In this document: piece by piece, positions 3,315 through 28,755 of the stretch
Position numbering within the stretch: position 1 is the first letter of the stretch
Layout of the letters: every line of letters begins with the position of its first letter
Source of the DNA: Pseudothioglobus sp. nBUS_23
Lineage (GTDB): Bacteria; Pseudomonadota; Gammaproteobacteria; PS1; Pseudothioglobaceae
Direction: 5' to 3'
DNA: 32,000 nt
Assembly: GCF_051201565.1 (NCBI RefSeq)
Contig: NZ_CP179200.1
Coordinates: 1,762,441-1,794,440, forward strand
Program-made: the position numbers and the translations under genes
Notes under the pieces: model-generated
The model's input: the letters and a program-made list of their open reading frames with translations, nothing else
Database searches by the model: none
Told to the model about the DNA's origin: nothing

Positions 3315-4841
3315 ATGGAAAAAACAAAACTACTTTTAATCTTAGATGGGTGGGGTTATTCGAGTGATACCTCTAATAATGCTATTGCCCTAGCAGATAC
3401 GCCTAATTGGGATCATTTTATAGAGAATTATCCAAACACCCTTATTGGCACCTCTGGAAACAGCGTAGGTCTTCCAGATGGACAAATGGGTAACTCTGAG
3501 GTTGGCCACCTGACTATTGGCTCGGGAAGAATTATTGAGCAGGATTTTACAAGAATTGAAAATTCAATAAAGTCTGGTGATTTTTTTTCCAATGAAGTGC
3601 TATGTAAAGCCCTTGCCTCAGCAAGTGAAAAAGGAAAGGCTGTGCATGTTCTCGGACTGCTATCCGATGGAGGTGTTCACTCACACCAAGATCATATCTT
3701 TGCGGCTCTTAAGCTTGCCAAAGAGAAAAAATGTGACAAGGTCTATATCCATATTTTTACTGATGGGCGCGATACGCCGCCTAATAGTGCCTCAACTTAT
3801 GTCAACGACCTAGAGAAACAAATTTCCGAAATAGGAGTCGGTAAAATTGTATCAATTGCTGGACGCTTTTATGCAATGGACAGGGATAATCGCTGGGAAA
3901 GGGTTTCAAAAGCCTATAAACTTATATCACAAGGAGTTGGCGAGCGACAAGCAAGCAATGCCCAAGAAGCTATTCAAAAGGCTTATGACCTAGGCGAAAA
4001 TGATGAATTTCTATCGCCAACATCAATAGGCAGCCCTGTTAGGTTAGAGGATGGCGACCTAATGATTTTTATGAATTATCGAGCTGATAGAGCAAGAGAA
4101 ATAACTCAAGCCCTTGCAATGTCCAGATTTGATGCGTTCAATCGAGAATATTTTGCTGAGTGCACTTTTGTCTGTCTTACAGAATATAAAAAAGACTTTG
4201 GTCTTGATTGTGCGTTCCCGCCGATATCTGTCAAAAACACTCTAGGGGATTGCGTGTCAGATCTTGGATTTAAGCAGCTTAGAATAGCTGAAACTGAAAA
4301 ATATGCGCATGTTACTTTTTTCTTCAATGGTGGTGTTGAAGAAAGTCTTCCTGGTGAAGATAGAAAGCTTATTCAGTCGCCCAAAGTAAAAACTTATGAT
4401 CTGCAACCGGAGATGAGTGCATTCGAACTCACAGAAGATCTTATTTCTGAGATTAATGCTCAAAAATATAGCCTTATTATATGCAACTTTGCAAACACCG
4501 ACATGGTTGGACATACTGGGAAACTCGAAGCGGCGATTAAGGCTGTAGAAGCTGTTGATAGCTGTCTTGGAAAAATCCATCGTGCAGCTAAAGAAACAAA
4601 AACAGAGGTTTTAATTACTGCTGACCATGGAAATGCAGAACAGATGACAGACTCTATAACTCAGAAAAGCCATACTGCTCATACAACTAATCCGGTTCCA
4701 TTAATTTATATTGGTGAAAAGAAAAGTTCGCTATTAGGTCCACATATTGGTACACTGGCAGACATAGCGCCAACTCTTTTGTCGCTCATGAACATTGAGC
4801 AGCCAAGCGAGATGTCAGGAAAAAGCCTTCTAACTAATTAG
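3315..4841 (+). CDS. gpmI: 2,3-bisphosphoglycerate-independent phosphoglycerate mutase
   Basis: 508 aa. [23 protein letters not shown] and TADHGNAE motifs are characteristic of iPGM. Confidence 0.95.
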
Positions 4842-4852
4842 TGGATAGTGAC

Positions 4853-5527
4853 ATGAAAAAAGACAACTTTATCGCCCCCTCAATACTCTCTGCAAACTTT
4901 GCTAAGCTTGGTGAGGAAGTTGACAATGTCTTGAATGCAGGAGCAGACATAGTTCATTTTGACGTAATGGATAATCACTATGTCCCAAACCTAACCATAG
5001 GGCCATTAGTTTGTGAGGCCTTAAGAAATCATGGGGTTACAGCGCCTATTGATGTCCACCTCATGGTGAAACCAGTTGACCGAATTATTCCTGATTTTGC
5101 AAGCGCTGGAGCTTCTTACATAACCTTTCATCCAGAGGCTTCAGAACATATTGATCGAACAATTAGTCTTATTAAAGAAAGTGGCTGTAAGGCTGGTTTA
5201 GTTTTTAATCCTGCAACCCCTCTTAACCACTTAGATCATGTTATTGACCAACTTGATATGGTTTTATTAATGTCGGTTAATCCAGGCTTTGGCGGTCAGT
5301 CATTTATTCCTAAAACCCTTGAAAAATTAAGGATTGTTAGAAACTTAATTGACTCAAGAAATCTTCAAACCAGGCTTGAAATTGACGGGGGAGTGAAGAT
5401 TGAGAATATTAAGGAGATAGCCTCAGCTGGGGCTGATACATTTGTAGCTGGGTCTGCTATTTTCAATACAGATGACTATAAAAAAACAATAGATAAAATG
5501 CGCTCTGAGCTTTCACAAGCATCGTGA
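4853..5527 (+). CDS. rpe: Ribulose-phosphate 3-epimerase
   Basis: [30 protein letters not shown] and [12 protein letters not shown] motifs. I prefer the ATG at 4853 because [12 protein letters not shown] aligns with the N-terminus of E. coli Rpe. The ORF track's GTG at 4841, overlapping the gpmI stop by 1 nt, is an alternative start. Confidence 0.9.
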
Positions 5528-13419: not shown

Positions 13420-13448
13420 TTGCAATAATATTGCGTTTACGTTATATT
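13420..13448 (+). promoter_or_regulatory. Putative sigma70 promoter (TTGCAA - 17 nt - TATATT) overlapped by a Fur-family-type 7-1-7 inverted repeat, TGCAATA A TATTGCG at 13421-13435 (candidate Zur operator)
   Basis: Read directly. One mismatch in the palindrome. It lies 43-57 nt upstream of the first ATG of an operon whose last gene is a Fur-family regulator. The symmetry resembles the gammaproteobacterial Zur box TGTTATAATATAACA, with symmetric substitutions. Confidence 0.45.
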
Positions 13449-13477
13449 ATCCTGTTTTTATCTTAAAAGAGGCTCCC

Positions 13478-14128
13478 ATGTTTAAACTCAGCTTTCTATC
13501 TTTATTATTAGTTTCATCTTTTGCAAGCGCTGAAGAAGCAAGGCGCGCCAATGCGCATGTCCATGGACTAAATAATTTGTCAATGGTAATCAGTCAAAAT
13601 CAAGTTGCTGTTTCATACGAAATGCCAATAGTACAGCTACTTGATGACCATGATGAGCATGACGAGCACGATGAGCACGATGAGCATGACGAGCACGATG
13701 AGCATGACGAGCACGATGAGCATGACGAGCACGATGAGCATGACGAGCACGATGAGCATGACGAGCACGATGAGCACGATGAGCACGATGAGCACGAAGG
13801 ACATGATGACCATGATGAGCTAACTGTTTCAGATGAAACTTTAGCTACATTTAACAATTACTCGCAATTATTTGAATTCCCCAAAGGCGCTGGATGTAAT
13901 CTAACCTCTTTTGAATCTGGTCTTCACAGCGTCTCAACAGAAGGAGATCACAAAGACGTTGAATTATCTTATGAGTTTGCTTGCAGCAATCCAAGTCAGT
14001 TAAAGAGCCTTACTATCAATGCGTTTGATCGATTTAGCGAACTTGAAACTTTAAACTTTGAGGCGGTAATAAACAATAAAGCTCTAACAAAGAGCCTAAA
14101 ATCAGGTGCTAATAAAGTAATATTTTAA
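13478..14128 (+). CDS. Secreted His/Asp/Glu-rich metal-binding protein, DUF2796 / ZrgA / PA4063-like
   Basis: 216 aa. Signal peptide MFKLSFLSLLLVSSFASA, then an AHVHG motif and beta-rich core as I recall for DUF2796. Central (HDE)16-HEGHDDHDE tract. First gene of an ABC + DUF3299 + zur operon. Confidence 0.75.
   Translation: MFKLSFLSLLLVSSFASAEEARRANAHVHGLNNLSMVISQNQVAVSYEMPIVQLLDDHDEHDEHDEHDEHDEHDEHDEHDEHDEHDEHDEHDEHDEHDEHDEHDEHEGHDDHDELTVSDETLATFNNYSQLFEFPKGAGCNLTSFESGLHSVSTEGDHKDVELSYEFACSNPSQLKSLTINAFDRFSELETLNFEAVINNKALTKSLKSGANKVIF
13649..13792 (+). repeat. In-frame tandem repeat: 16 consecutive CAY-GAY-GAG (His-Asp-Glu) units, including five perfect copies of the 18-bp unit CATGACGAGCACGATGAG at 13685-13774
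   Basis: Counted codon by codon from the sequence. The acidic/His tract extends from 13643 to 13819. Confidence 0.98.
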
Positions 14129-14139
14129 ATGAGGGTCTG

Positions 14140-14799
14140 ATGTTACAAGCGCTAGGTCTGGAATACCATTATCAGCAGGGTAAAAAAATTGTATTTCCAG
14201 AAATAGAGATTGAAAGAGGGCAGAGATTATTAATTAGTGGTTTTTCAGGTTGTGGTAAAACAACCTTACTGAGCCTAATTGCTGGCGCCTTGCAGCTTCA
14301 GGTTGGTGACATTAAATTTGATGACCAAGATTACTCATCAATGTCCTCGCTGCTTTTGGATAGGCATAGAGCTGATCATATCGGCTATATTTTTCAAACA
14401 TTAAACCTCATCCCCTTTTTAAGTGTTTCTGAAAACATAGGATTAGGTATTCGATTCTCTCATTCTAGAAAATCCAGAGTTAGCAATCTAAATCAAGAAA
14501 TTAATAGGCTGGTAGACTCTTTAGGTCTAGACAAAGAGGTTTTAAACACGCCAGTCAACCGCTTAAGTGTTGGACAACAGCAAAGGGTTGCAGCAGCTAG
14601 AGCTCTTCTGGGCAAACCAGACTTAATTCTTGCGGACGAGCCTACCTCCGCCCTAGATTCTGACACAACTAAAAAGTTTCTAAATGAGATGATGGAAACC
14701 TTTGATGCCTCAAAACAGGCCATTATTATGGTCAGTCATGATGCCTCAATAGCACCCTACTTTGACTCTGTAATAGACTTTAATAAACACTATGCTTAG
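14140..14799 (+). CDS. ABC transporter ATP-binding protein (MacB/LolD-like; PA4064/ZrgB-like)
   Basis: 219 aa. Walker A GFSGCGKTT, signature LSVGQQQRVAAARAL, Walker B LILADEPTSALD, H-loop VSHD. Confidence 0.9.
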   Translation: MLQALGLEYHYQQGKKIVFPEIEIERGQRLLISGFSGCGKTTLLSLIAGALQLQVGDIKFDDQDYSSMSSLLLDRHRADHIGYIFQTLNLIPFLSVSENIGLGIRFSHSRKSRVSNLNQEINRLVDSLGLDKEVLNTPVNRLSVGQQQRVAAARALLGKPDLILADEPTSALDSDTTKKFLNEMMETFDASKQAIIMVSHDASIAPYFDSVIDFNKHYA

Positions 14800-16039
14800 T
14801 CTTTTGCTTAAATCAATGCGTTCAAGAATGATTCCAACTTCGCTTGTAACAATATCTTTAATGGCCTCGATGGTTCTGTTGCTCAGTATTGAGAGAATTC
14901 AACAAGGCGCAGAAGAGGGTTTTAATCAAAGCATTTCTGGTGTTGATGCGATTATCGGCCCAAGGTCTAGCTCTCTCGAATTAGTTTTATATACAGTTTT
15001 CCATCTGGGCAGGCCGACAAATAACATTACGACAGAAACTATCAATGATGTCAAACAAAGAAGCGATATTAGTTGGCTGGTTCCAATTGCATTAGGAGAT
15101 AGTCATAGAGGGTTTAGAGTTGTGGCTACTGAGCCAAACTACTTTAAACACATCAGGTATGGAAACAATCAGCCCCTAACCTTCTCAAAAGGCGTGCCTT
15201 TTGCTGAGCTATCTGAGGCAACCTTAGGCTCTGATGTTGCTGAAAAACTCAACTACAGCATTGGTTCAGAGATCCAAATCACTCATGGCTCAATTGAGTC
15301 AATAGGGAGCAAGCATGATGACTTTTCATTTAAGGTAACCGGCGTTCTTAATAAAACAGGCACCCCAATCGACCAGGCTGTCTTCCTCGATTTAAAGGGC
15401 TATGAGCTTCTTCACTTAGGCTGGAAAAGCGGAAAAAAAGTATTTAGTCTTGAAGATATTGACTTGTCTTCTCTTCCGCCTGAAGCTCTTAACCCAAAAA
15501 CAGTTACGGCTGCTTTTGTGGGTCTTAAATCAAAGCTAACTATATTTAACTTTAGCAAGAATATCAGAGAATATCCAGAGGAAGCGATATCCGCGGTTAT
15601 ACCAGGAATAGCCTTGTCTGAACTTTGGTCTATAGTTGGATTAGTTGACAAAGGGTTTCAGCTTTTAAGCTGGATAATAATTGCAATTAGCCTTATTGCA
15701 ATGGTCACCTTAATTATTGCAAGTCTAGACAACCGAAAACATGAAATGACAATATACAGGGCCAATGGGGCCTCCCCCAAATTTTTGGCCGCCATGGTAA
15801 TTTATGAATCACTTGTAATTGGCCTGGTGGCAATAATTGGTGCAATTATTCTTGTTACTGCTGTTACCTATTTCGCCACTAACCAGCTTAATTTGGCTTT
15901 AGGTATTTCTCCCTCGTTTAAATGGATTAGCCTAAATGAAATTAAAGTTTTCGGTATTATTTTATTGTCTGGAGTATTAAGCGGCTTAATTCCAGCAGTG
16001 ATGGTTTTTAGAAAGAATTTACATCAGGCATTGAGTTAA
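14792..16039 (+). CDS. ABC transporter permease, FtsX/MacB-type (4 TM with a large periplasmic domain; PA4065/ZrgC-like)
   Basis: 415 aa. One N-terminal TM, a hydrophilic domain of about 240 aa, then three C-terminal TMs (the FtsX-fold pattern). 8-nt overlap with the ATPase gene. Confidence 0.85.
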   Translation: MLSLLLKSMRSRMIPTSLVTISLMASMVLLLSIERIQQGAEEGFNQSISGVDAIIGPRSSSLELVLYTVFHLGRPTNNITTETINDVKQRSDISWLVPIALGDSHRGFRVVATEPNYFKHIRYGNNQPLTFSKGVPFAELSEATLGSDVAEKLNYSIGSEIQITHGSIESIGSKHDDFSFKVTGVLNKTGTPIDQAVFLDLKGYELLHLGWKSGKKVFSLEDIDLSSLPPEALNPKTVTAAFVGLKSKLTIFNFSKNIREYPEEAISAVIPGIALSELWSIVGLVDKGFQLLSWIIIAISLIAMVTLIIASLDNRKHEMTIYRANGASPKFLAAMVIYESLVIGLVAIIGAIILVTAVTYFATNQLNLALGISPSFKWISLNEIKVFGIILLSGVLSGLIPAVMVFRKNLHQALS

Positions 16040-16609
16040 ATGATAAATAGGCTGTTGGTTATCAGTTTAATTTTTCTCTCATTGGGCTCTTCTGCCATTG
16101 TAGTCACAGATGAGTACTTGACTACTATAGAAAATAACTGGCTAAGCCTTGAGCCAGATGATGCATATGATTTTATTCCCGAAGACCTCACTTATGAGAT
16201 GTACATGAGTGAAGAGTTTCAAGCTAAATTGGCTGCAGAGGGAACCAGGCTGAACAATTCTGTAGAGGGCAAGGATATTGCTCTTGCTGGGTTTATGGTT
16301 CCAATTGAGTATCAGGGCACTAGGATCAGTAAGTTTTTACTAGTTCCTGAAGCTGGGCAGTGTATTCATGTACCGCCTCCACCTTTGAATCAAACTTTAC
16401 TTGTAGATGTCACTGGCAGTCCTACAAAGTTTCGTGATTTGTACATGCCAATAATTGTTTATGGGAGAATATCTGTAGGATCGCAAAGCTTTGATCTTGC
16501 AGATAGTGGATATACCATTACTGATGCTGTTATTGAAACACTTCATTTTAGTGACGAAGAATATGCCAATGAAGATTATAGCTATAACCTAGAGGACCCT
16601 CATGATTAG
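16040..16609 (+). CDS. DUF3299-like exported protein (PA4066-like)
   Basis: 189 aa. N-terminal signal-like segment. The conserved FLLVPEAGQCIHVPPPPLNQ motif is, as I recall, diagnostic of DUF3299. The ATG directly follows the permease stop. Confidence 0.75.
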   Translation: MINRLLVISLIFLSLGSSAIVVTDEYLTTIENNWLSLEPDDAYDFIPEDLTYEMYMSEEFQAKLAAEGTRLNNSVEGKDIALAGFMVPIEYQGTRISKFLLVPEAGQCIHVPPPPLNQTLLVDVTGSPTKFRDLYMPIIVYGRISVGSQSFDLADSGYTITDAVIETLHFSDEEYANEDYSYNLEDPHD

Positions 16610-17018
16610 TAGATCAGAATTAATATCTAAATGTCTAGAAACGGGACGAAGCGCAACACCCCAAAGAATGTCAATTATTGACGAACTTTGCTCCTCCAAA
16701 AAAAATCTATCTGCTTATGACCTTAAGGACTCCCTTAAAGACAAAGGCCATTCATTTAATATTAGTACAATATATAGGGTTTTAGACTTTTGGATTGAAT
16801 TGGGTGTTGTTCATAAAATGGACTCAAGCAATACCTATTTGGTTTGTAATGATAGCCATACTAACCATTTCCATGTGTTGCTTCACTGTACTAGCTGCAA
16901 ATCAGTTCAAGAGTCTTGTCAGCTTTCAGCACAGCTCTCATTACCTGACAGCAATAAGTTTGCTGTTAATGATTCTCAGGCTGTTGAGATTAATGGCGTC
17001 TGCAACAAATGCCAATAA
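16602..17018 (+). CDS. zur: Fur-family metalloregulator, probably Zur
   Basis: 138 aa. Winged-helix N-terminal domain (TPQR..I...L; STIYRVLD), H.NHFH cluster, and two CxxC pairs (CTSC, CNKC) for structural Zn. 8-nt overlap with the upstream gene. The Zur call rests on operon context, not on sequence alone. Confidence 0.7.
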   Translation: MISRSELISKCLETGRSATPQRMSIIDELCSSKKNLSAYDLKDSLKDKGHSFNISTIYRVLDFWIELGVVHKMDSSNTYLVCNDSHTNHFHVLLHCTSCKSVQESCQLSAQLSLPDSNKFAVNDSQAVEINGVCNKCQ

Positions 17019-17024
17019 AAAAAG

Positions 17025-17546
17025 TTATCTATTAATTCTTACCATAAGCTCGTTTTTGCGAAATATGGAAATAACATAAGGAGCATTAAACTGAGCGACC
17101 ATAAAGTCTCCGCTTGTTTCAATACTATTTTGCTGGAGAAGCGTTGCAAATTTTTTTTGAAAACTCTTACTTCTAGACTCTGTCGCCCATCCCCCAAAAG
17201 GAAATACTGCAACCTCCCCCAAAGATTCTTTTTGGATTGAAACATTTTCTGTGTTGGACTTAGGAAGGTCTTTCAATGAGTGCTCGCTAGGCATCACAAA
17301 GGAAATATTGTAACTCTCTCGATTATCAGAAGGGCAGTCAGTAATTACAGGGGCAGTCATAGCGATTTTCATTTCCTTGTCATTGCCGCCAAAAATGTAA
17401 TTAGCAATTCTTCTGAAGCCAGATGATGTAGAGCCCTTGTAATCTGAGCGGACTGAAGTCGTTGCAATTATCATTTCATTGTAACGACGGATTTCGAATC
17501 CATTATATTCTGAGATTACTTGGTATTGAGGAGTTTCAAGAGCCAT
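17025..17546 (-). CDS. SOUL heme-binding family protein
   Basis: 173 aa. ETPQY.V......FEIRRY, GF..IA.YIFGGN......IAMTAPV and FGGWA motifs typical of SOUL/HBP proteins. No signal peptide is evident. Confidence 0.8.
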   Translation of the reverse strand: MALETPQYQVISEYNGFEIRRYNEMIIATTSVRSDYKGSTSSGFRRIANYIFGGNDKEMKIAMTAPVITDCPSDNRESYNISFVMPSEHSLKDLPKSNTENVSIQKESLGEVAVFPFGGWATESRSKSFQKKFATLLQQNSIETSGDFMVAQFNAPYVISIFRKNELMVRINR

Positions 17547-17558
17547 GTAAAGTTAAAT

Positions 17559-18440
17559 TTATTGATGTTTTTTTCCAAAAAATGGGACTAGTATTGGCGT
17601 TCTTTTTTTGTATTCAATATAGTCCTTGTCTTCGCCCCATTTTTTTTCAGCCTTGTCTTCTAAAAAAGGAAGTCCACTTATTCTTGTCAAAAGGAGAAAC
17701 ACAAACACAGGAGATGCTAGAGTCACAAACTGCCAGCCAGATAAAAATGGTAGCGAGATAATTGCAATACCAGCCCATAGAATAATTTCTCCAAAATAGT
17801 TTGGATGGCGAGATACAGACCATAGCCCCTGGGTGATAAACCTGCCTTCATTTTTAGGCTGCTCACTGAAGTGCTTTTTTTGTTTGTCAGCAATCACCTC
17901 AAAACCAAAGCCTAATAACCACAACAAAGCCCCCATGATAAAAAATATACCAATTGGCTCAAGTGGGTTCAGCGCGATTAAAGTAATGGCGTTTACAGTC
18001 GTTAAGAAGACCCAAAGCGCTGACAATGTCCAAGTCATTAAAAACTTTGGAATCGATTTTTTTATATCTCTAAACCTGCTGTCTTCACCCGCTTTCACTA
18101 TTCTTTTATAAAGAAATATTCCCAGTCTTAAGGTCCAAACAGATACAAAGGAGGCAACGAATACTGAACGAATTGATGCTTCTGCTCCCGAACTCAAGAG
18201 CGCAAACATCGCAGTTAAAACAACAAGGAGCGTAGCAACCATCCCTGTAAAGTCAAAATATTTTTCTGAGCTTGTAATTAACGAAGGAACCGCAATCATC
18301 CAATGCGTCACAAAACTGACGATGGCACACAAAAGAATTATTGGAATTCCAGAAAAAAATATCCCATCAACTGAAGCTGCTATAGCAACAAGGTAAGCCG
18401 TTAAAATGCATAAAGCGATAGCGCCAAAGTCTCTAATCAT
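17559..18440 (-). CDS. DUF1295 membrane protein (steroid 5-alpha-reductase / ICMT-like fold)
   Basis: 293 aa, polytopic. The C-terminal GLWSVSRHPNYFGEIILWAG motif is characteristic of DUF1295. Confidence 0.8.
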   Translation of the reverse strand: MIRDFGAIALCILTAYLVAIAASVDGIFFSGIPIILLCAIVSFVTHWMIAVPSLITSSEKYFDFTGMVATLLVVLTAMFALLSSGAEASIRSVFVASFVSVWTLRLGIFLYKRIVKAGEDSRFRDIKKSIPKFLMTWTLSALWVFLTTVNAITLIALNPLEPIGIFFIMGALLWLLGFGFEVIADKQKKHFSEQPKNEGRFITQGLWSVSRHPNYFGEIILWAGIAIISLPFLSGWQFVTLASPVFVFLLLTRISGLPFLEDKAEKKWGEDKDYIEYKKRTPILVPFFGKKHQ

Positions 18441-19474
18441 TGCGGTTTCTCAAAAAGGTAGTGCGAGACGCCCCATTCGGAGCCATGGGCAAACCCAAAA
18501 AGAACCTCGCAAGACATGAAAAAAATACGCCATCTTTGGAACCATGACTTGGCGTCATTTTTTCCATAAGTTTTCTTAAAGAGCTCTAAAACCTCTGCTT
18601 TATTTTTGTCCATTTTTTGAAGCCAAGCAAGAGAGGTTTTTTCGTAGTGCGTTCCACTCACTCTCCAGTCTTTTTGTATTTTCATTTGACCTGGAAAGCT
18701 CATCAATAGCCTATGGGAAGGCATTTGGCCACCGCTAAAAAACTCCCTTGCCATCCAGTCTGCATCGTCATTATCTTCAAACGGATAGGCAACTCTTTGG
18801 TGGGAAAATATATGTACAAAAAGCTTTCCTTCCTTTTTTAACCACAAATTAACTCTGCCAAGTAGTTTTTCATAATTGCGCATATGCTCAAACATCTCGA
18901 TTGAAACAACTCGATCAAACAATCCCTCAGCCTCAAAATCATTCATGTCTGCAGTGATAACCCTGACATTGTCTAGCTTAAGCTGTCTGCATCTCTCTTC
19001 TATAAACAGCCTCTGGTCATTAGAGTTGCTAACTGCGGTAATTTTACTTTTTGGAAAATGCTCCGCCATATAGAGCGTTAAAGACCCCCATCCGCACCCT
19101 AACTCTAATATATCTTGGCCATCAACCAATTCTGCTCTCTGCGTTGTCAGCTCTAGCATGGCAGATTCAGACTGATCTAGCGAAGACACCCCTTTTGGCC
19201 AATGGCCGGAGCTATATTTAAGCCTCTTTCCGAGCACGAGCTCAAAGAGTCTTGGCGGAACCTCATAATGCTGTTCGTTTGCTTTTTCTGGAACAAGTGC
19301 AATTGGGCTTTTCTTTAAAACTTCAACCCATGCGGCATGCTCCTTTTCCATATCATCATCACTAAAGCTTGTTGCCTTCACCAAGCGTTGACTGCATAGG
19401 CGCTTTATTCCGAGCCTGATTAATGAGTCCGGCAACCACCCTTTTTCTGCAAGTTTAATTAATAAAGTAATCAT
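18437..19474 (-). CDS. SAM-dependent methyltransferase of the cyclopropane-fatty-acyl-phospholipid synthase (CMAS) family, short form
   Basis: 345 aa. SAM motif ILELGCGWGSL, SIEMFEHM, and a C-terminal W..YF..CE..F region typical of CFA synthases. ATGA-type 4-nt overlap with the downstream gene. Confidence 0.85.
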   Translation of the reverse strand: MITLLIKLAEKGWLPDSLIRLGIKRLCSQRLVKATSFSDDDMEKEHAAWVEVLKKSPIALVPEKANEQHYEVPPRLFELVLGKRLKYSSGHWPKGVSSLDQSESAMLELTTQRAELVDGQDILELGCGWGSLTLYMAEHFPKSKITAVSNSNDQRLFIEERCRQLKLDNVRVITADMNDFEAEGLFDRVVSIEMFEHMRNYEKLLGRVNLWLKKEGKLFVHIFSHQRVAYPFEDNDDADWMAREFFSGGQMPSHRLLMSFPGQMKIQKDWRVSGTHYEKTSLAWLQKMDKNKAEVLELFKKTYGKNDAKSWFQRWRIFFMSCEVLFGFAHGSEWGVSHYLFEKPQ

Positions 19475-19477
19475 AAG

Positions 19478-20767
19478 TTAATATGTAATTTGAGTGTTTC
19501 TTGAATCCGGCTTAGCAAATACAAGCTGAAAGTCTCCAATTAGGTTTTCAAGAAAACCTGCTTCACAGTAGACCAGGTAAAAATTCCAAATCCTCGTAAA
19601 AGGCTCTGAAAAACCAAGCTCTTTAACCTGAGGCAAAACAGCTAGAAAGTCTTCTCGCCAAATCTCTAGGGTTCTTGCATAATGATGAGTAATGTCTTCA
19701 GAGTGTATCATCGCCATATCAGTCTTATCTTTGATGGCTTGCAATATTTGTGGCATTGCAACAAGACATGAGCCTGGAAAAATATACTTCCTTATAAAGT
19801 CAACTGATCTCTTGTAAGAATCAAAGTCGGGGTCATTGTAGGTTATCCCTTGAAGCAGCATGAGTCCATTTATTTTCATTAATGAGGATGCTTTTTCGAA
19901 GAACCCAGGAACGTACTCTGCGCCGACAGCCTCTATCATTTCAATAGAAACAACCTTGTCAAATGAACCCTCAAGCTCTCGATAGTCTTTGCTTAAAAGT
20001 GTTATTTTGTTATCAAGGCCTTCTTTAGATATAAGCTCTGATGCATATTGAAACTGTTTATCAGAGATGGTTGTTGTTGTAACCTTGCAGCCATAGTTTT
20101 TAGCGGCATGAATTGCAAAGCTTCCCCACCCTGTGCCAATTTCAAGAACATGGTCTGTGTTTTTAAGCTTGAGTTTTCTACAGATTCTATCTAATTTTTC
20201 AATAGAAGCCTCTTTCATGCTTGAGCTCTTATTAAGAAAAACTCCACTTGAATAGGTCATTGTTGGATCTAGCCAAAGCTTGTAAAAATCATTACTCAAA
20301 TCATAGTGGGCCAAGATATTGTTTTTACTTCCAGCTAAAGTATTTTGTCTTTTTTTGTGAATTAGTTTTGTAATTGGATTGGCCAGTCTTGCTAAGCCAG
20401 ACTCAAGGCCAAGCAAAGTTTTTTTATTTTTAATAATAAGCTGTATCAACTTGACAAGGTTGTTGGAGCCCCAGTATCCAGCAGTGAAGGCCTCTGCAGC
20501 GCCATTTGTCCCCCCACTTCCTAAAAAAACATAAAACTCTTGCGAAAAAACCTCCAGCTCTGCCTTAAACTCAGAATCTGGATTACCAAAAACGTGTTTG
20601 TGGTCTCCATCAATAATGGTTAGCTCACCACTATTAATGCTTTTTAGCTTTCTAAATAAAATGCTTTTAAAAAAAGACGTTGTGCGTGTGCTTTTTTGCA
20701 TTTCTTGAATGCTGTTCGCAAGAGCGTCAACGGATAGCTTGTCTTTGAACTGTTTTTCTTTTGTCAT
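19478..20767 (-). CDS. Cyclopropane-fatty-acyl-phospholipid synthase family protein, long form with N-terminal extension
   Basis: 429 aa. HYDLSNDFY, VLEIGTGWGSFA, SIEMIEAVG and LVYCEAGF motifs. Confidence 0.85.
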   Translation of the reverse strand: MTKEKQFKDKLSVDALANSIQEMQKSTRTTSFFKSILFRKLKSINSGELTIIDGDHKHVFGNPDSEFKAELEVFSQEFYVFLGSGGTNGAAEAFTAGYWGSNNLVKLIQLIIKNKKTLLGLESGLARLANPITKLIHKKRQNTLAGSKNNILAHYDLSNDFYKLWLDPTMTYSSGVFLNKSSSMKEASIEKLDRICRKLKLKNTDHVLEIGTGWGSFAIHAAKNYGCKVTTTTISDKQFQYASELISKEGLDNKITLLSKDYRELEGSFDKVVSIEMIEAVGAEYVPGFFEKASSLMKINGLMLLQGITYNDPDFDSYKRSVDFIRKYIFPGSCLVAMPQILQAIKDKTDMAMIHSEDITHHYARTLEIWREDFLAVLPQVKELGFSEPFTRIWNFYLVYCEAGFLENLIGDFQLVFAKPDSRNTQITY

Positions 20768-21528
20768 AATTTATCTGGGTGTGTAAAAAATGGAGCCCTT
20801 CTGATTAAAAGCATCAGGGCTTGCCAATGTATTCTGTAGACAACCATCATAGTTGCAAACGGAAACCTAAGAATAGCCTTAATAAGGCCTTTCTTACTGA
20901 AGGCTTGCCTTTTTAAGCTCAGCGCAACATTGAACACCTTTTCTCCATCTTTATAGTTTTTCATTATTACATTTAACGCCTCTTCAGGATTAGAAAAAAA
21001 CCACTCATATTCGTGGTCCATTCCCCAAAAAGGGCTGACATGGAATTGTTTTTTTGGAGTGGCAGTAAAGCTTAGTTTGCTGCTCGACTCTAGCCGCTCA
21101 TTTATAACGTATGCGTGCCTTTCTTTCCATGGAGTATTAGTAACTTCGGCCATTATAGCCTCAACTTTTTTATCATTTTCATCAAAACAGTAATAAAAAC
21201 TAACTGGATTAAAGCAGTGTCCAAAGTATCTTAAGTGTGTAAGAAGCCTGATTGGACCTTTGAATTCTATACCTGTTTTTTCATGCATAGTTTTTCTAAC
21301 AGCCTCTTCAAGGCCTATTGATGGGTCCCCATGATAGTCCTGTCTCCTGTAGGAAACGATTGCAGGCTTGTTGATGTTCCAAAGCATAGATGGCTTCATG
21401 ACAGAGGCTAAATTAGAGATATCAATATAAGCCATAAAAATAGGGTACTTAAAAAAACGGCTGAATGGAGTATGCCTATGGTGACTAATAGTTCCCCAGT
21501 ATAAGTGATGCATTTTAGAAAGGCTCAT
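20764..21528 (-). CDS. DUF1365 family protein
   Basis: 254 aa. N-terminal LYWG.ISH.RH.P....F.Y.IFMAYIDI pattern typical of DUF1365. 4-nt overlaps on both sides. Confidence 0.75.
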   Translation of the reverse strand: MSLSKMHHLYWGTISHHRHTPFSRFFKYPIFMAYIDISNLASVMKPSMLWNINKPAIVSYRRQDYHGDPSIGLEEAVRKTMHEKTGIEFKGPIRLLTHLRYFGHCFNPVSFYYCFDENDKKVEAIMAEVTNTPWKERHAYVINERLESSSKLSFTATPKKQFHVSPFWGMDHEYEWFFSNPEEALNVIMKNYKDGEKVFNVALSLKRQAFSKKGLIKAILRFPFATMMVVYRIHWQALMLLIRRAPFFTHPDKL

Positions 21529-22772
21529 AGCGAGACCCCAAAAGCCTTGCAGACATCGAGCGCACTATTGACTCCGTCTTCATGAAAACCATTGCCCCAG
21601 TAGGCGCCACAATAATATGTATTATTTTGGCCACTGATTTGGTTTTTTTTCTTCTGAGCATGGACTCCATTAACCGTAAAGAGGGGGTGCGAATAATCAA
21701 TTTTTTTGATTATTTTTGAAGGGTTGATTTCGTTCAAACTGTTAAGGGTCACCAAAAAGTCTGGTTTCGCGTCCAATGACTGAAGAATATTCATATTATA
21801 AGTCAGTGTGACGGGTCTATTTGGGTCGCCACTCAACAAATAATTCCAGCTTGACCAGGTTTTTTTAATTTTTGGCATTAGTGTCACATCAGTGTGAACT
21901 ATAGCTGTATTTTTTTGATAGGGCAAGGCCTCAAGAACTGACTTTTCATCATTGCTTGGGTCCTTAAGCAATGCTAGCGCTTGGTCGCTATGGGTAGCAA
22001 AGACAACTTTATCAAAAAATAATGGATCAGCTTCTTTTTCACAATAAATCTTGACCTCAGAGGGGTTGCGCTCTACTTTTATTACTGGCTTAGATAGAAG
22101 AATTTTTTCCTGAAAACCCTCAATTATTTTTTGAACATAGGACTTAGAGCCGCCCTTGATAACAAACCATTGTGGGCGATTAAATATCTGGAGAAGACCA
22201 TGGTTTTTAAAAAAACGAATGAAAAAAGCTGCGGGCATTTCCGTTGTTTTGTTAGCTGCAGTTGACCAAATAGCCGCACCCATTGGAATAATGTAATTCT
22301 CCACAAAGGGCTTGCTAAACTTATGTTTTTCTAAGAAACTAAGAATAGTTGTTGTCTCGTCAGCCTTGGAAAGCTCTTTTGCAGCTAGGCGATTAAAGCG
22401 AAGAACGTCCTTCAGCATAATCAAAAAGGCTGGCTTGAACAAATTAAGTCTCTGGGCAAAAACCGTATTTAGAGACCCCCCAGAATACTCAAGGTTTTGT
22501 GATGGCGCCTTAACACTGAAACCCATTGTAGTCTTTTGGACCTTTACCTTTAGTTTTTTTAGAAGCTTAATGAAATTAGGGTAGGTTTTTTCGTTGTAAA
22601 CAATAAAGCCTGAATCGACCTTCCACATTTTGTTGTTCTGGCTTATTTCGTGTGTGTGGGTATGTCCACCAATATAGTCATTTGCTTCAAAAACAGTAAT
22701 GTCGTGGTCTTTGTGTAAAAGGTATGCAGTGGTTAAGCCCGATATTCCACTGCCAATAATCGCAATCTTCAT
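21525..22772 (-). CDS. FAD/NAD(P)-binding amine-oxidase/desaturase-like oxidoreductase
   Basis: N-terminal dinucleotide fold MKIAIIGSGISGLTTAYLL...V.FEA....GGH. I prefer the ATG at 22772; the ORF track's TTG at 22781 adds only 3 residues. Confidence 0.85.
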   Translation of the reverse strand: MKIAIIGSGISGLTTAYLLHKDHDITVFEANDYIGGHTHTHEISQNNKMWKVDSGFIVYNEKTYPNFIKLLKKLKVKVQKTTMGFSVKAPSQNLEYSGGSLNTVFAQRLNLFKPAFLIMLKDVLRFNRLAAKELSKADETTTILSFLEKHKFSKPFVENYIIPMGAAIWSTAANKTTEMPAAFFIRFFKNHGLLQIFNRPQWFVIKGGSKSYVQKIIEGFQEKILLSKPVIKVERNPSEVKIYCEKEADPLFFDKVVFATHSDQALALLKDPSNDEKSVLEALPYQKNTAIVHTDVTLMPKIKKTWSSWNYLLSGDPNRPVTLTYNMNILQSLDAKPDFLVTLNSLNEINPSKIIKKIDYSHPLFTVNGVHAQKKKNQISGQNNTYYCGAYWGNGFHEDGVNSALDVCKAFGVSL

Positions 22773-23129
22773 AAACAACAATTAAATATATAATGTTGAG
22801 CCTCCCCTTTAATAGCTCTAAGCACTATCATAACCAAAAACTGCGCAGGAAAAACGAAAAAAGGCCCAATTATAACGAGTCTTTTTTTGGGATGCGTCGA
22901 ATACTCTAAAAGCCTTACACAGAAAAACAGGCAGCCAAATAGTCTTTGCGTATTTAGAAAAAATATGGGATAATTGTCGCCTTTCAGCATTTTAGCTGGA
23001 AAAGGAACGGCATTGTATTAACAACGTCAGTAATTTAATGTATCACACAGCGCCCCAATATTAGTCAGGGTGCCCTTTAAAAGGGGTTGGCTAATAGGCA
23101 ATGTGGAAGTCTTAACCCAGGAGAAATGT

Positions 23130-24122
23130 ATGGCGAAAGCGTCAATGAAAAAAATGTTAGAGGCCGGTGTTCACTTCGGCCACAGGTCTCGTTTTTGGCA
23201 CCCAAAAATGGAGCCTTATATTTACGGAACACGAAACGGTGTTCACATAATCAATTTAGAAAAAACACTGCCCCAGTTTAATGATGTACTAAACTTTGCA
23301 AGCAAAACTGCATCTCAAGGAGGATCAATTCTCTTTGTAGGAACAAAAAGAGCTGCAAGCAACATAATTAAAGATGAGGCAATTCGTTGCGGCATGCCTT
23401 ACGTTAATCATCGCTGGTTAGGCGGAATGATGACAAACTACAAAACTATCAAGGCGTCTATAAAACGACTTAAAGATTTAGAGTTTCTAGCAGAAGAAAA
23501 CTTTGCTCAATTTACTAAGAAAGAAGCCCTAGTAATGACCCGCGAGATGGAGAAGCTAGAAAGAAGCCTTGGCGGCATTAAAGACTTGGGCACCATACCT
23601 GATGTTGTTTTTGTGGTTGACATTGGTCATGAAAAAAATGCTGTTAGAGAAGCTCAAACTCTTCGCCTGCCAATTATAGGCGTTGTAGACTCTAATCATA
23701 ATCCTGAGGGCATCGATTATGTGATAGCTGGAAATGATGATTCAATTAGAGCAATTGGATACTATGCAAGAAAAATTGCAGACGCGGTTTTGGAGGCTAA
23801 AGCTTCTATCGTTGAGACAAAGCCTGCAGCAAAGAAAGAGGCTACTAAAAAGCCTGCAGCAAAGAAAGAGGTTTCTGAAGAAAGCACTGAAGCGGAAGCG
23901 CCTGCTGAAGAGAAAAAACCTGCAGCTAAAAAGCCTGCAGCAAAGAAAAAGGTTTCTGAAGAAAGCACTGAAGCGGAAGCGCCTGCTGAAGAGAAAAAAC
24001 CTGCAGCTAAAAAGCCTGCAGCTAAAAAGCCTGCAGAAAAGAAAGAGGCTACTAAAAAGCCTGCAGCTAAAAAGCCTGCAGCAAAGAAAACCTCAGCTAA
24101 GAAAACTGAGGCCGACAAGTAA
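23130..24122 (+). CDS. rpsB: 30S ribosomal protein S2 with a C-terminal Lys/Ala/Pro/Glu-rich extension of about 100 aa
   Basis: AGGAGA RBS at 23119-23124. [24 protein letters not shown] is the canonical S2 N-terminus, so the upstream GTG at 23070 is rejected. The CDS is 330 aa against 241 aa in E. coli. Confidence 0.95.
23851..24012 (+). repeat. 81-bp tandem duplication (2 copies, 1 mismatch) inside the S2 tail, embedded in a wider array of AAGCCTGCAGCWAARAA (KPAAKK) motifs spanning about 23818-24095
   Basis: Copy 1 is 23851-23931 and copy 2 is 23932-24012. They differ only at one G/A (E to K). A third copy starts at 24013 but diverges. Confidence 0.95.
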
Positions 24123-28670: not shown

Positions 28671-28755
28671 TGGTGCCGTCGGACGGAGTCGAACCGTCAC
28701 AGCTTGCGCTACAGCCCCCTCAAGGCTGCGTGTCTACCAATTTCACCACGACGGC
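28671..28755 (-). tRNA. tRNA-Leu (anticodon GAG), CCA encoded
   Basis: The reverse complement, GCCGTCGTGGTGAAATTGGTAGACACGCAGCCTTGAGGGGGCTGTAGCGCAAGCTGTGACGGTTCGACTCCGTCCGACGGCACCA, folds by hand into a cloverleaf. It has a 7-bp acceptor stem, an anticodon loop TTGAGGG, a long variable arm and a GGTTCGACTCC T-arm. Its position after secG mirrors E. coli secG-leuU. Confidence 0.93.

Follow-up and report, generated by a model that had tools for sequence, protein, structure and literature searches.

A predicted Zur-autoregulated zinc-acquisition operon with a terminal zur gene in a marine gammaproteobacterium of the Thioglobaceae

We analysed a 32,000-nucleotide (nt) stretch of Pseudothioglobus sp. 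nBUS_23 (contig NZ_CP179200.1, positions 1,762,441 to 1,794,440 of the forward strand; hereafter the window), whose host is a gammaproteobacterium of the Thioglobaceae (ARCTIC96BD-19 / "Ca. Pseudothioglobus" group). Five open reading frames (ORFs), all on the plus strand, span positions 13478-17018 and encode, in this order, a ZrgA-family zinc-binding protein, an ATP-binding cassette (ABC) ATPase, an FtsX/MacB-like permease, a DUF3299 protein and a Fur-family regulator that most resembles Zur. This is probably a self-contained, Zur-autoregulated zinc-starvation and acquisition operon of the Zrg / PA4063-PA4066 type. Its features are as follows:

13420..13448, + strand: predicted sigma-70 promoter from a consensus scan (-35 TTGCAA, 13420-13425; 17-nt spacer; -10 TATATT, 13443-13448)
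13421..13435, no strand assigned: candidate Zur operator, the inverted repeat TGCAATAATATTGCG, overlapping the predicted -35
13466..13472, + strand: Shine-Dalgarno-like AAAGAGG before zrgA, read from the sequence
13478..14128, + strand: zrgA, periplasmic ZrgA-family zinc-binding protein, 216 amino acids (aa), Pfam PF10986
13643..13819, + strand: (DEH)n tandem-repeat tract in the beta2-helix loop of ZrgA, from Tandem Repeats Finder and the codon list
14140..14799, + strand: ABC ATPase subunit, 219 aa, Pfam ABC_tran (105.8 bits)
14792..16039, + strand: type VII (FtsX/MacB-like) ABC permease, 415 aa, Pfam FtsX (51.7 bits) and MacB_PCD (36.9 bits)
16040..16609, + strand: DUF3299 protein (ZrgE/PA4066 homologue), 189 aa, with an N-terminal signal or anchor and an OB (oligonucleotide/oligosaccharide-binding) fold, Pfam PF11736
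16602..17018, + strand: zur, predicted Fur-family zinc-responsive repressor, 138 aa, the last gene of the operon, Pfam FUR

The successive spacings between these genes are 11, -8, 0 and -8 nt. The TAA of zrgA is followed by an 11-nt spacer containing GAGGG and by the ATG of the ATPase gene, the ATPase and permease genes overlap by 8 nt (ATGCTTAG), the permease and DUF3299 genes abut directly (TAA followed by ATG), and the DUF3299 gene and zur share another 8 nt (ATGATTAG). This packing, which had been described in a first-pass annotation of the window, can be read directly from the sequence. The protein families that the same annotation had named were all matched by Pfam (ZrgA/PF10986, formerly DUF2796; ABC_tran; FtsX with MacB_PCD; DUF3299; FUR), and the likeness that it had noted to PA4063-PA4066 of Pseudomonas aeruginosa and ZrgABCDE of Vibrio is borne out by the structures matched in the PDB, namely PA4066 (4HSP), PA4063 and Escherichia coli Zur (4MTD).

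The first protein carries a signal peptide that, as read from the sequence, ends with ...FASA before EE, and matches PF10986 with 69.2 bits (cutoff 27.4). Full-length ZrgA had no match in a sequence search of the PDB, which is due to the repeat, since trimming the repeat brought up PA4063 (E 5e-4). An AlphaFold 2 (AF2) model of ZrgA, built from a shallow alignment and of low confidence (predicted local distance difference test, pLDDT, 55), was used only for the order of secondary structure elements and for a fold search. In Foldseek its top 16 matches were all PA4063 or V. cholerae ZrgA (E 6e-8 to 4e-5), and the order of elements was strand 32-39, strand 42-50, a disordered segment 56-116, helix 119-132, strand 142-153 and strand 160-169, with a beta3-beta4 loop of only about 6 residues in this low-confidence model. 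The next neighbour after PA4063 and V. cholerae ZrgA was the copper-binding 'Ang-1' domain of a HupE/UreJ-2 protein (9GCE, E 0.06, prob 0.85); this weak match, obtained with a low-confidence model, may indicate that ZrgA-like domains are linked to other metal-transport proteins.

The zinc site of PA4063 comprises the ligands His16/His18, Glu47/His48 and His120, next to a Cys81-Cys131 disulfide (PMC8561739). Residues H27, H29 and H158 of the window ZrgA align with His16, His18 and His120, and C140 and C169 with the two disulfide cysteines; all five are invariant among 22 diverse sequences. Glu47/His48, situated in the loop that joins beta2 to the long helix, are matched by D57/H58.

The ATPase has intact motifs (Walker A GFSGCGKT, signature LSVGQ, Walker B LILADE, H-loop SHD). 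For the permease, hydropathy and Pfam agree with the FtsX/MacB fold proposed by the first-pass annotation, i.e. one transmembrane segment (TM), a periplasmic domain and three further TMs (TM 13-36, a periplasmic domain of about 250 aa, and TMs at approximately 288-312, 332-362 and 385-407). The DUF3299 protein matches PF11736 with 95.1 bits and the PA4066 structure 4HSP by sequence (E 1.3e-14). Its AF2 model (pLDDT 82.6) is an OB fold, for which Foldseek returned 4HSP as the best match (E 1e-10), followed by OB domains of tRNA synthetases, SSB and RPA. The CIHVPPPP motif, already pointed out as conserved in the first-pass annotation, is part of E-x-G-Q-C-I-H-V-P-P-P-P, in which E104, G106, Q107, C108, H110, V111 and P112-P115 do not vary among 14 diverse homologues; it also occurs in PA4066. 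The invariant face of the protein is EAGQCIHVPPPP, and the family comprises 2809 representatives at 50% identity (E <= 1e-3).

The product of the last gene matches Pfam FUR (PF01475) with 48.4 bits (cutoff 23.1). Its best NCBIfam model is Zur PRK11639 (74.9 bits), ahead of Fur (49.5) and PerR (44.2), and in the PDB it is closest to E. coli Zur 4MTD (E 4.7e-16). Each of the eight zinc ligands of the E. coli protein is retained: (i) the regulatory-site residues H71, C82, H89 and E104 align with H77, C88, H96 and E111, and (ii) the structural cysteines C96, C99, C134 and C137 align with C103, C106, C143 and C146. A weak promoter-like site was noted at 16533-16562 (TTGAAA, 18-nt spacer, AAGAAT), within the 3' end of the DUF3299 gene and about 40 nt before the zur start; this site, a consensus match only, could provide basal zur expression while the operon is repressed.

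The distribution of the arrangement was assessed with 70 species-representative loci (designated by L numbers) encoding a DUF3299 protein of the same subfamily, 66 of which had enough downstream sequence to be judged. A Fur-family gene directly follows or overlaps the DUF3299 gene in 43 of these 66 loci. The zur-linked loci belong to Thioglobaceae (heterotrophic and SUP05-type), Litorivicinaceae/Litoricola, HIMB30 and related metagenome-assembled genomes (MAGs), while an adjacent zur is absent from the alphaproteobacterial loci (Parvibaculales, PS1, Rhodobiaceae) and from two Marinobacterium loci. The embedded zur, which had been taken as a distinguishing trait of this version, is therefore real, but is a conserved feature of the clade rather than a peculiarity of the window. 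The nearest genomic loci come from single-amplified genomes and MAGs labelled "uncultured gamma proteobacterium", "Candidatus Thioglobus sp." and "Ca. Pseudothioglobus", with DUF3299 identities from 97% down to 73%. Dozens of independent genomes and metagenomes have the five genes in the identical order, which shows that the arrangement is not a chance pattern of ORFs. The order is kept in the differing neighbourhoods of close relatives (L001-L003 versus L004-L006) and in a second family, the Litorivicinaceae; the cassette thus behaves as a module.

Two of the alphaproteobacterial loci without an adjacent zur showed features of their own. In L062 (2424-7549) a gene for a COG0523-like GTPase lies directly upstream, and a Fur-family gene is present farther upstream on the opposite strand. 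The ZrgA of L075 (4505-7516) is short and divergent and has a GFEH loop like that of PA4063.

The 76-nt region upstream of the operon contains the palindrome TGCAATAATATTGCG, with a perfect 6-1-6 core (GCAATA-A-TATTGC), which is the sole match at <=2 mismatches in the window. In relatives with diverged flanks the block CTATTGCAATA[A/G]TATTGC[A/G]TTTA..ATATATTAT is kept. When the loci were scanned for TGCAATAnTATTGCA, with 2 mismatches allowed, the motif was recovered from 30 of the 32 zur-linked loci for which upstream sequence was available and from 1 of the 17 loci lacking zur, counts that are not phylogenetically independent. It is essentially single per locus and lies 37-58 nt upstream of zrgA where the start codon is placed correctly. 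In the Litorivicinaceae locus L031 the palindrome appears, from our reading of the sequence, to cover the -10 and not the -35. The two Marinobacterium loci without embedded zur carry a canonical TGTTATAnnATAACA box instead.

Two other candidates for a leader element were rejected. The canonical Zur box (GTTATAwTATAAC) had 14 matches at <=3 mismatches in the window versus 9.6 expected, and its upstream match, with 3 mismatches, is no better than chance and so provides no evidence for a canonical box. A riboswitch or other RNA element is not indicated in the leader either, as Rfam finds only a tRNA and an rpsB leader, both elsewhere in the window.

In a metagenome-wide scan for the palindrome, the matches listed were mostly on unrelated contigs, many of them non-coding, and only L084, L159, L180, L126 and L173 had metal-related neighbours among them. 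These listed matches do not outline a regulon for the organism of the window. Among these listed matches, TGCAATAnTATTGCA stands directly upstream of Fur-family genes in L126 (1412-1905) and L159 (1555-2055), the order in the latter being box, zur, zrgA and ATPase. It lies between the genes for a ZnuC-like ATPase and ZrgA in L180 (1877-3245), and between divergent HupE/UreJ_2 and DUF6702 genes in L173 (5435-6608). The palindromes of L126, L159, L180 and L173 suggest, at the level of sequence, that the Zur-box variant is used beyond the clade, in other taxa.

The last gene could instead encode a Fur-family protein that senses Fe, Mn, Ni/Co or peroxide, the operon then serving the metal in question rather than zinc. 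This would fit a regulator that scores 74.9 bits against a Zur cutoff of 167 and also has weak Fur and PerR matches, an operator that is not the canonical Zur box, and the ability of His/Asp/Glu tracts to bind Ni, Co and Cu as well. It is nevertheless highly improbable in view of the lead of Zur over the other models (about 25 bits in NCBIfam and about 3 orders of magnitude in the PDB), of the conservation of the four regulatory and four structural ligands of E. coli Zur, and of the Zur regulation of the linked gene families in Vibrio and Pseudomonas (PMC9817125, PMC11481552).

The most conspicuous part of ZrgA is the (DEH)n tract. Tandem Repeats Finder delimited the array at 13643-13820, with a period of 9 (19.8 copies) or 18 (9.9 copies, 88% matches). 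The encoded tract, 59 aa long (residues 56-114), contains 19 His and an uninterrupted run of 16 perfect D-E-H units. In the AF2 model it forms a disordered segment bounded by strand 42-50 and helix 119-132, and in the alignment it starts at the position of the PA4063 ligands Glu47/His48 (conserved site b / site 1). Both cysteines of ZrgA lie C-terminal of it.

Every marine clade examined has an H/D/E-rich tract in the beta2-helix loop, although the repeat units differ (DEH, HDEHK, HE). Its size is 3, about 9, 14 or >20 units in six metagenomic relatives; among 116 close metagenome homologues the length is 3-67 aa (median 23), mostly in 3-aa steps, and in genome loci it is 6 to about 130 aa, bearing in mind that lengths from short-read assemblies may be under-reported through repeat collapse. 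The closed genome of Ca. Pseudothioglobus sp. Uisw_041 (NZ_CP159805.1; L027) encodes about 125 aa, roughly 41 units. The window's 59 aa are therefore near the upper end of the range and not the most extreme: the tract that the first-pass annotation had described as an extreme, distinctive trait is real, but clade-wide and polymorphic. In a few clades the beta3-beta4 loop carries a further tract as well; a second His-rich stretch was seen at this position in L036, L047, L048 and L050. In L022, L029, L037, L045, L052 and L055, labelled Ca. Thioglobus / Piscirickettsiaceae, the His-rich loop of ZrgA (zrgA at about 4400-5100 in each locus) is interrupted midway by a conserved hydrophobic insert, G[LMF]FAF[IL]xx[LM]F. 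In L001 (4886-5540), L002 (4851-5540) and L005 (4922-5538), whose names suggest long-read assemblies, zrgA is frameshifted within (DEH)n; these frameshifts are most likely sequencing or assembly errors, real inactivation being the alternative.

Such variation raises the question of whether the tract is functionally neutral or an assembly artefact, i.e. a slippage-prone microsatellite tolerated in a surface loop. The 3-aa steps among the 116 homologues, the frameshifts in long-read assemblies and the tendency of short-read assemblies to collapse repeats would all be expected in that case, and V. cholerae grew no differently when the His-rich loop of its ZrgA was deleted (PMC9820375). We nonetheless regard this explanation as rather unlikely, because a His/Asp/Glu-rich tract occupies the same loop in every clade examined despite its differing units, because it is in frame in genome-derived loci, because the closed genome L027 carries a tract of about 125 aa, and because its start coincides with a ligand position of the conserved zinc site.

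The working scheme that we favour builds on the observed gene identities, conserved ligands, conservation of the operator-like site and polymorphism of the tract; its statements on DNA binding by Zur, on the response to zinc and on what is transported in which direction are taken from the homologues. When zinc is sufficient, zinc-loaded Zur would bind the palindrome TGCAATAATATTGCG and, given its overlap with the -35, block transcription. When zinc falls, Zur would leave the DNA and the five genes would be transcribed as one mRNA, with translation probably coupled via the overlapping stop and start codons. Exported ZrgA would capture periplasmic Zn2+ at His27/His29/His158 together with a carboxylate or His of the loop, and the 19-His (DEH)n tract growing from this ligand loop could act as a low-affinity collecting antenna. 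The type VII ATPase/permease machine and the OB-fold DUF3299 protein might then drive ATP-dependent transfer of zinc from ZrgA toward the cytoplasm, or a periplasmic hand-over, and Zur made from the same mRNA would re-repress the operon once zinc returns. Consistent with such a role, zrgABCDE supports growth under zinc limitation in V. cholerae, where ZrgA is required (PMC9820375), and the V. parahaemolyticus operon is induced 75- to 205-fold by zinc deficiency (PMC9817125).

The transport mechanism of these systems is disputed, in line with the first-pass annotation: the cited literature is split between import in Vibrio (PMC9820375, PMC9817125) and a MacB-type pyochelin-cobalt exporter in P. 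aeruginosa (PMC11481552). The system is nevertheless better described than the first-pass annotation suggests: the family is now named in Pfam, there are crystal structures and zinc-binding data on ZrgA and PA4063, and V. cholerae has a genetic requirement for ZrgA.

The window's ATPase and permease may accordingly be read as an exporter or periplasmic extruder of a metallophore, a metal-chelate or a competing metal such as cobalt that acts during zinc starvation, with ZrgA and the DUF3299 protein as export accessories. The FtsX plus MacB_PCD architecture of the permease agrees with this, as do the nearest NCBIfam models of the ATPase, which are exporter/mechanotransducer ATPases (bacteriocin export, DevA, LolD, FtsE; all below their cutoffs), and a PA4065 mutant accumulates pyochelin and cobalt with zinc unchanged (PMC11481552). 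On the other hand, no family match to a membrane-fusion protein (HlyD/MFP) or TolC was found among the ORFs of >=100 aa, either in the operon or elsewhere in the 32-kb window. The export model relies on pyochelin, but no siderophore or metallophore genes lie near the cassette in the neighbourhoods examined of these streamlined marine genomes. Moreover, ZrgA keeps a high-affinity-type zinc site and a large zinc-collecting tract, and the V. cholerae system restores growth under zinc limitation (PMC9820375). On balance, export seems improbable to us.

Several points weigh against the proposed zinc-acquisition operon, and they were taken into account in calling it no more than probable. No import pathway is known for FtsX/MacB-type permeases. 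The window ZrgA scores 46.8 bits with the NCBIfam equivalog ZrgA_Zn_trans (NF047873), below its cutoff of 185, and is a member of the family by Pfam and fold, not an equivalog of Vibrio ZrgA. The Zur protein likewise falls below the PRK11639 equivalog cutoff. By its sequence the window operator is a variant of the canonical gammaproteobacterial Zur box, and the zur-linked Litorivicinus locus L026 has a canonical-type box, for which reason any change of specificity may not be a strict one. Finally, cultured V. cholerae can do without the His-rich loop of its ZrgA (PMC9820375), and the P. aeruginosa homologue has been given an export role, cellular zinc being unchanged in the PA4065 mutant (PMC11481552).

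A more far-reaching proposal, which we put forward only tentatively and consider doubtful as a whole, is that the zrgA-ATPase-permease-DUF3299-zur cassette serves the Thioglobaceae, the Litorivicinaceae and their streamlined marine relatives among the Gammaproteobacteria as a complete zinc sensing-and-acquisition unit. These bacteria would have no Zur other than that of the cassette, with GCAATA half-sites replacing GTTATA, the type VII machine would be their primary, perhaps sole, high-affinity importer, and the (DEH)n antenna would be tuned by slippage to oceanic zinc. If this were true, these small cultivable genomes would offer a natural minimal system for asking whether a transporter of the MacB/FtsX fold can import metal, a question on which Vibrio genetics favour import and work on P. 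aeruginosa favours export. The compact version of the clade holds regulator, operator, binding protein, motor and OB-fold partner within 3.6 kb, and it is found in bacteria that are abundant in the ocean and have small genomes, some of them in culture (Ca. Pseudothioglobus singularis PS1 and HIMB30 are cultured relatives). The tract forms a natural allelic series (3 to about 130 residues) on a ligand loop and would give a handle on the role of His-rich loops, which is debated for ZnuA and ZrgA, and the conserved variant operator provides a prediction for Zur regulons in marine metagenomes. No paper on the zur-linked form or on zinc regulation in Thioglobus was found in the literature.

The remaining genes of the window are ordinary chromosomal core (L25, Pth, YchF, iPGM, Rpe, fatty-acid oxidation genes, S2, EF-Ts, SecG, TIM) and its G+C content is flat, at about 0.40; an origin of the operon from a mobile element or island was rejected on account of this flat composition and the housekeeping flanks. 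ZnuABC genes were not found in the window, and no ORF for a DUF2607 single-TM protein (ZrgD) is present within or beside the operon. Convergent to the operon, at 17025-22781 on the minus strand, lie genes for a SOUL haem-binding protein, DUF1295, two CMAS-type (cyclopropane-fatty-acid-synthase-like) methyltransferases, DUF1365 and a flavin amine oxidase. The synteny of this cluster is kept in L001-L003, and other genes take its place in L004-L006. The rpsB product (23024-24122) is listed with 350 aa, of which residues 29-242 form the S2 domain and about 100 C-terminal residues a Lys/Ala-rich tail with a weak HC2 histone-like match; a long S2 is also called in L001 (346 aa) and L002 (345 aa). 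The listed GTG start of rpsB is overlapped by the Rfam t44 leader RNA (23024-23116), and the true start is therefore probably further downstream. A tRNA gene (RF00005, 51.6 bits) is located at 28674-28755 on the minus strand, between an EamA transporter gene and secG.

When compared with known systems, the operon shares with P. aeruginosa PA4063-PA4066 the set and order of the four structural genes (ZrgA-family protein, separate ATPase, FtsX/MacB_PCD permease, DUF3299) without DUF2607, as well as the His-x-His / Glu-His / His zinc site, the disulfide and CIHVPPPP. PA4063-PA4066 is Zur-regulated (PMC8561739, PMC11481552). The operon of the window differs in having zur as a fifth cistron and the operator TGCAATAnTATTGCA in place of the canonical box, and its host is a marine bacterium without pyochelin. 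In addition, the His-rich stretches characterised in PA4063 and V. cholerae ZrgA are at the N-terminus and in the beta3-beta4 loop, between the disulfide cysteines (PMC8561739, PMC9820375), whereas the 59-aa tract of the window is in the beta2-helix loop and not at either of the places known from PA4063.

The Vibrio ZrgABCDE system (V. cholerae vc2551-2555; V. parahaemolyticus VP_RS01455-01475), which belongs to the zinc-starvation regulon (PMC9820375, PMC9817125), has in common with the window's operon the ZrgA fold, the ATPase, the permease, the DUF3299 protein (ZrgE) and a long disordered H/D/E-rich loop of about 60 aa in ZrgA. This loop (residues 113-184) lies between the disulfide cysteines, whereas the window tract precedes both. 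In addition, Vibrio encodes a DUF2607 single-TM protein, ZrgD, that this operon lacks, and its zur is not linked to the transporter genes. DUF2607 is missing as well from PA4063-66, V. fischeri and P. profundum (PMC9817125), and ZrgD is therefore not universal to the Zrg family.

With the type VII ABC mechanotransducers MacAB-TolC, LolCDE and FtsEX the operon shares a 4-TM FtsX domain and a MacB-like periplasmic core domain, and its ATPase is most similar to this group. It differs from MacAB-TolC in that the nucleotide-binding and transmembrane domains are encoded by separate genes and that a MacA-type adaptor and TolC are lacking, and from all three in its partners, a zinc-binding ferredoxin-like protein and an OB-fold protein. 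In comparison with ZnuABC, the binding protein is of PF10986 and the permease of the FtsX/MacB_PCD type, not a ZnuA-type substrate-binding protein and ZnuB (ABC-3). Operons that similarly combine zur with transporter genes occur in Staphylococcus and Listeria. Co-transcription of the repressor with its own zinc ABC-transport operon and negative autoregulation are a known regulatory design, represented by the Zur-autoregulated zur-znuC-znuB operon of P. aeruginosa (PMC3781045); there, however, zur comes first and the transporter is a classical cluster A-I ZnuABC importer, whereas the window's operon combines a type VII transporter with a zur that comes last and overlaps the DUF3299 gene by 8 nt. 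Among the systems of the Zrg / PA4063-PA4066 type, to which it belongs, the operon most resembles the four-gene form of Pseudomonas in gene content, and its distinguishing traits are the lack of DUF2607, a metal tract in a different loop, a variant operator and a terminal, overlapping zur.

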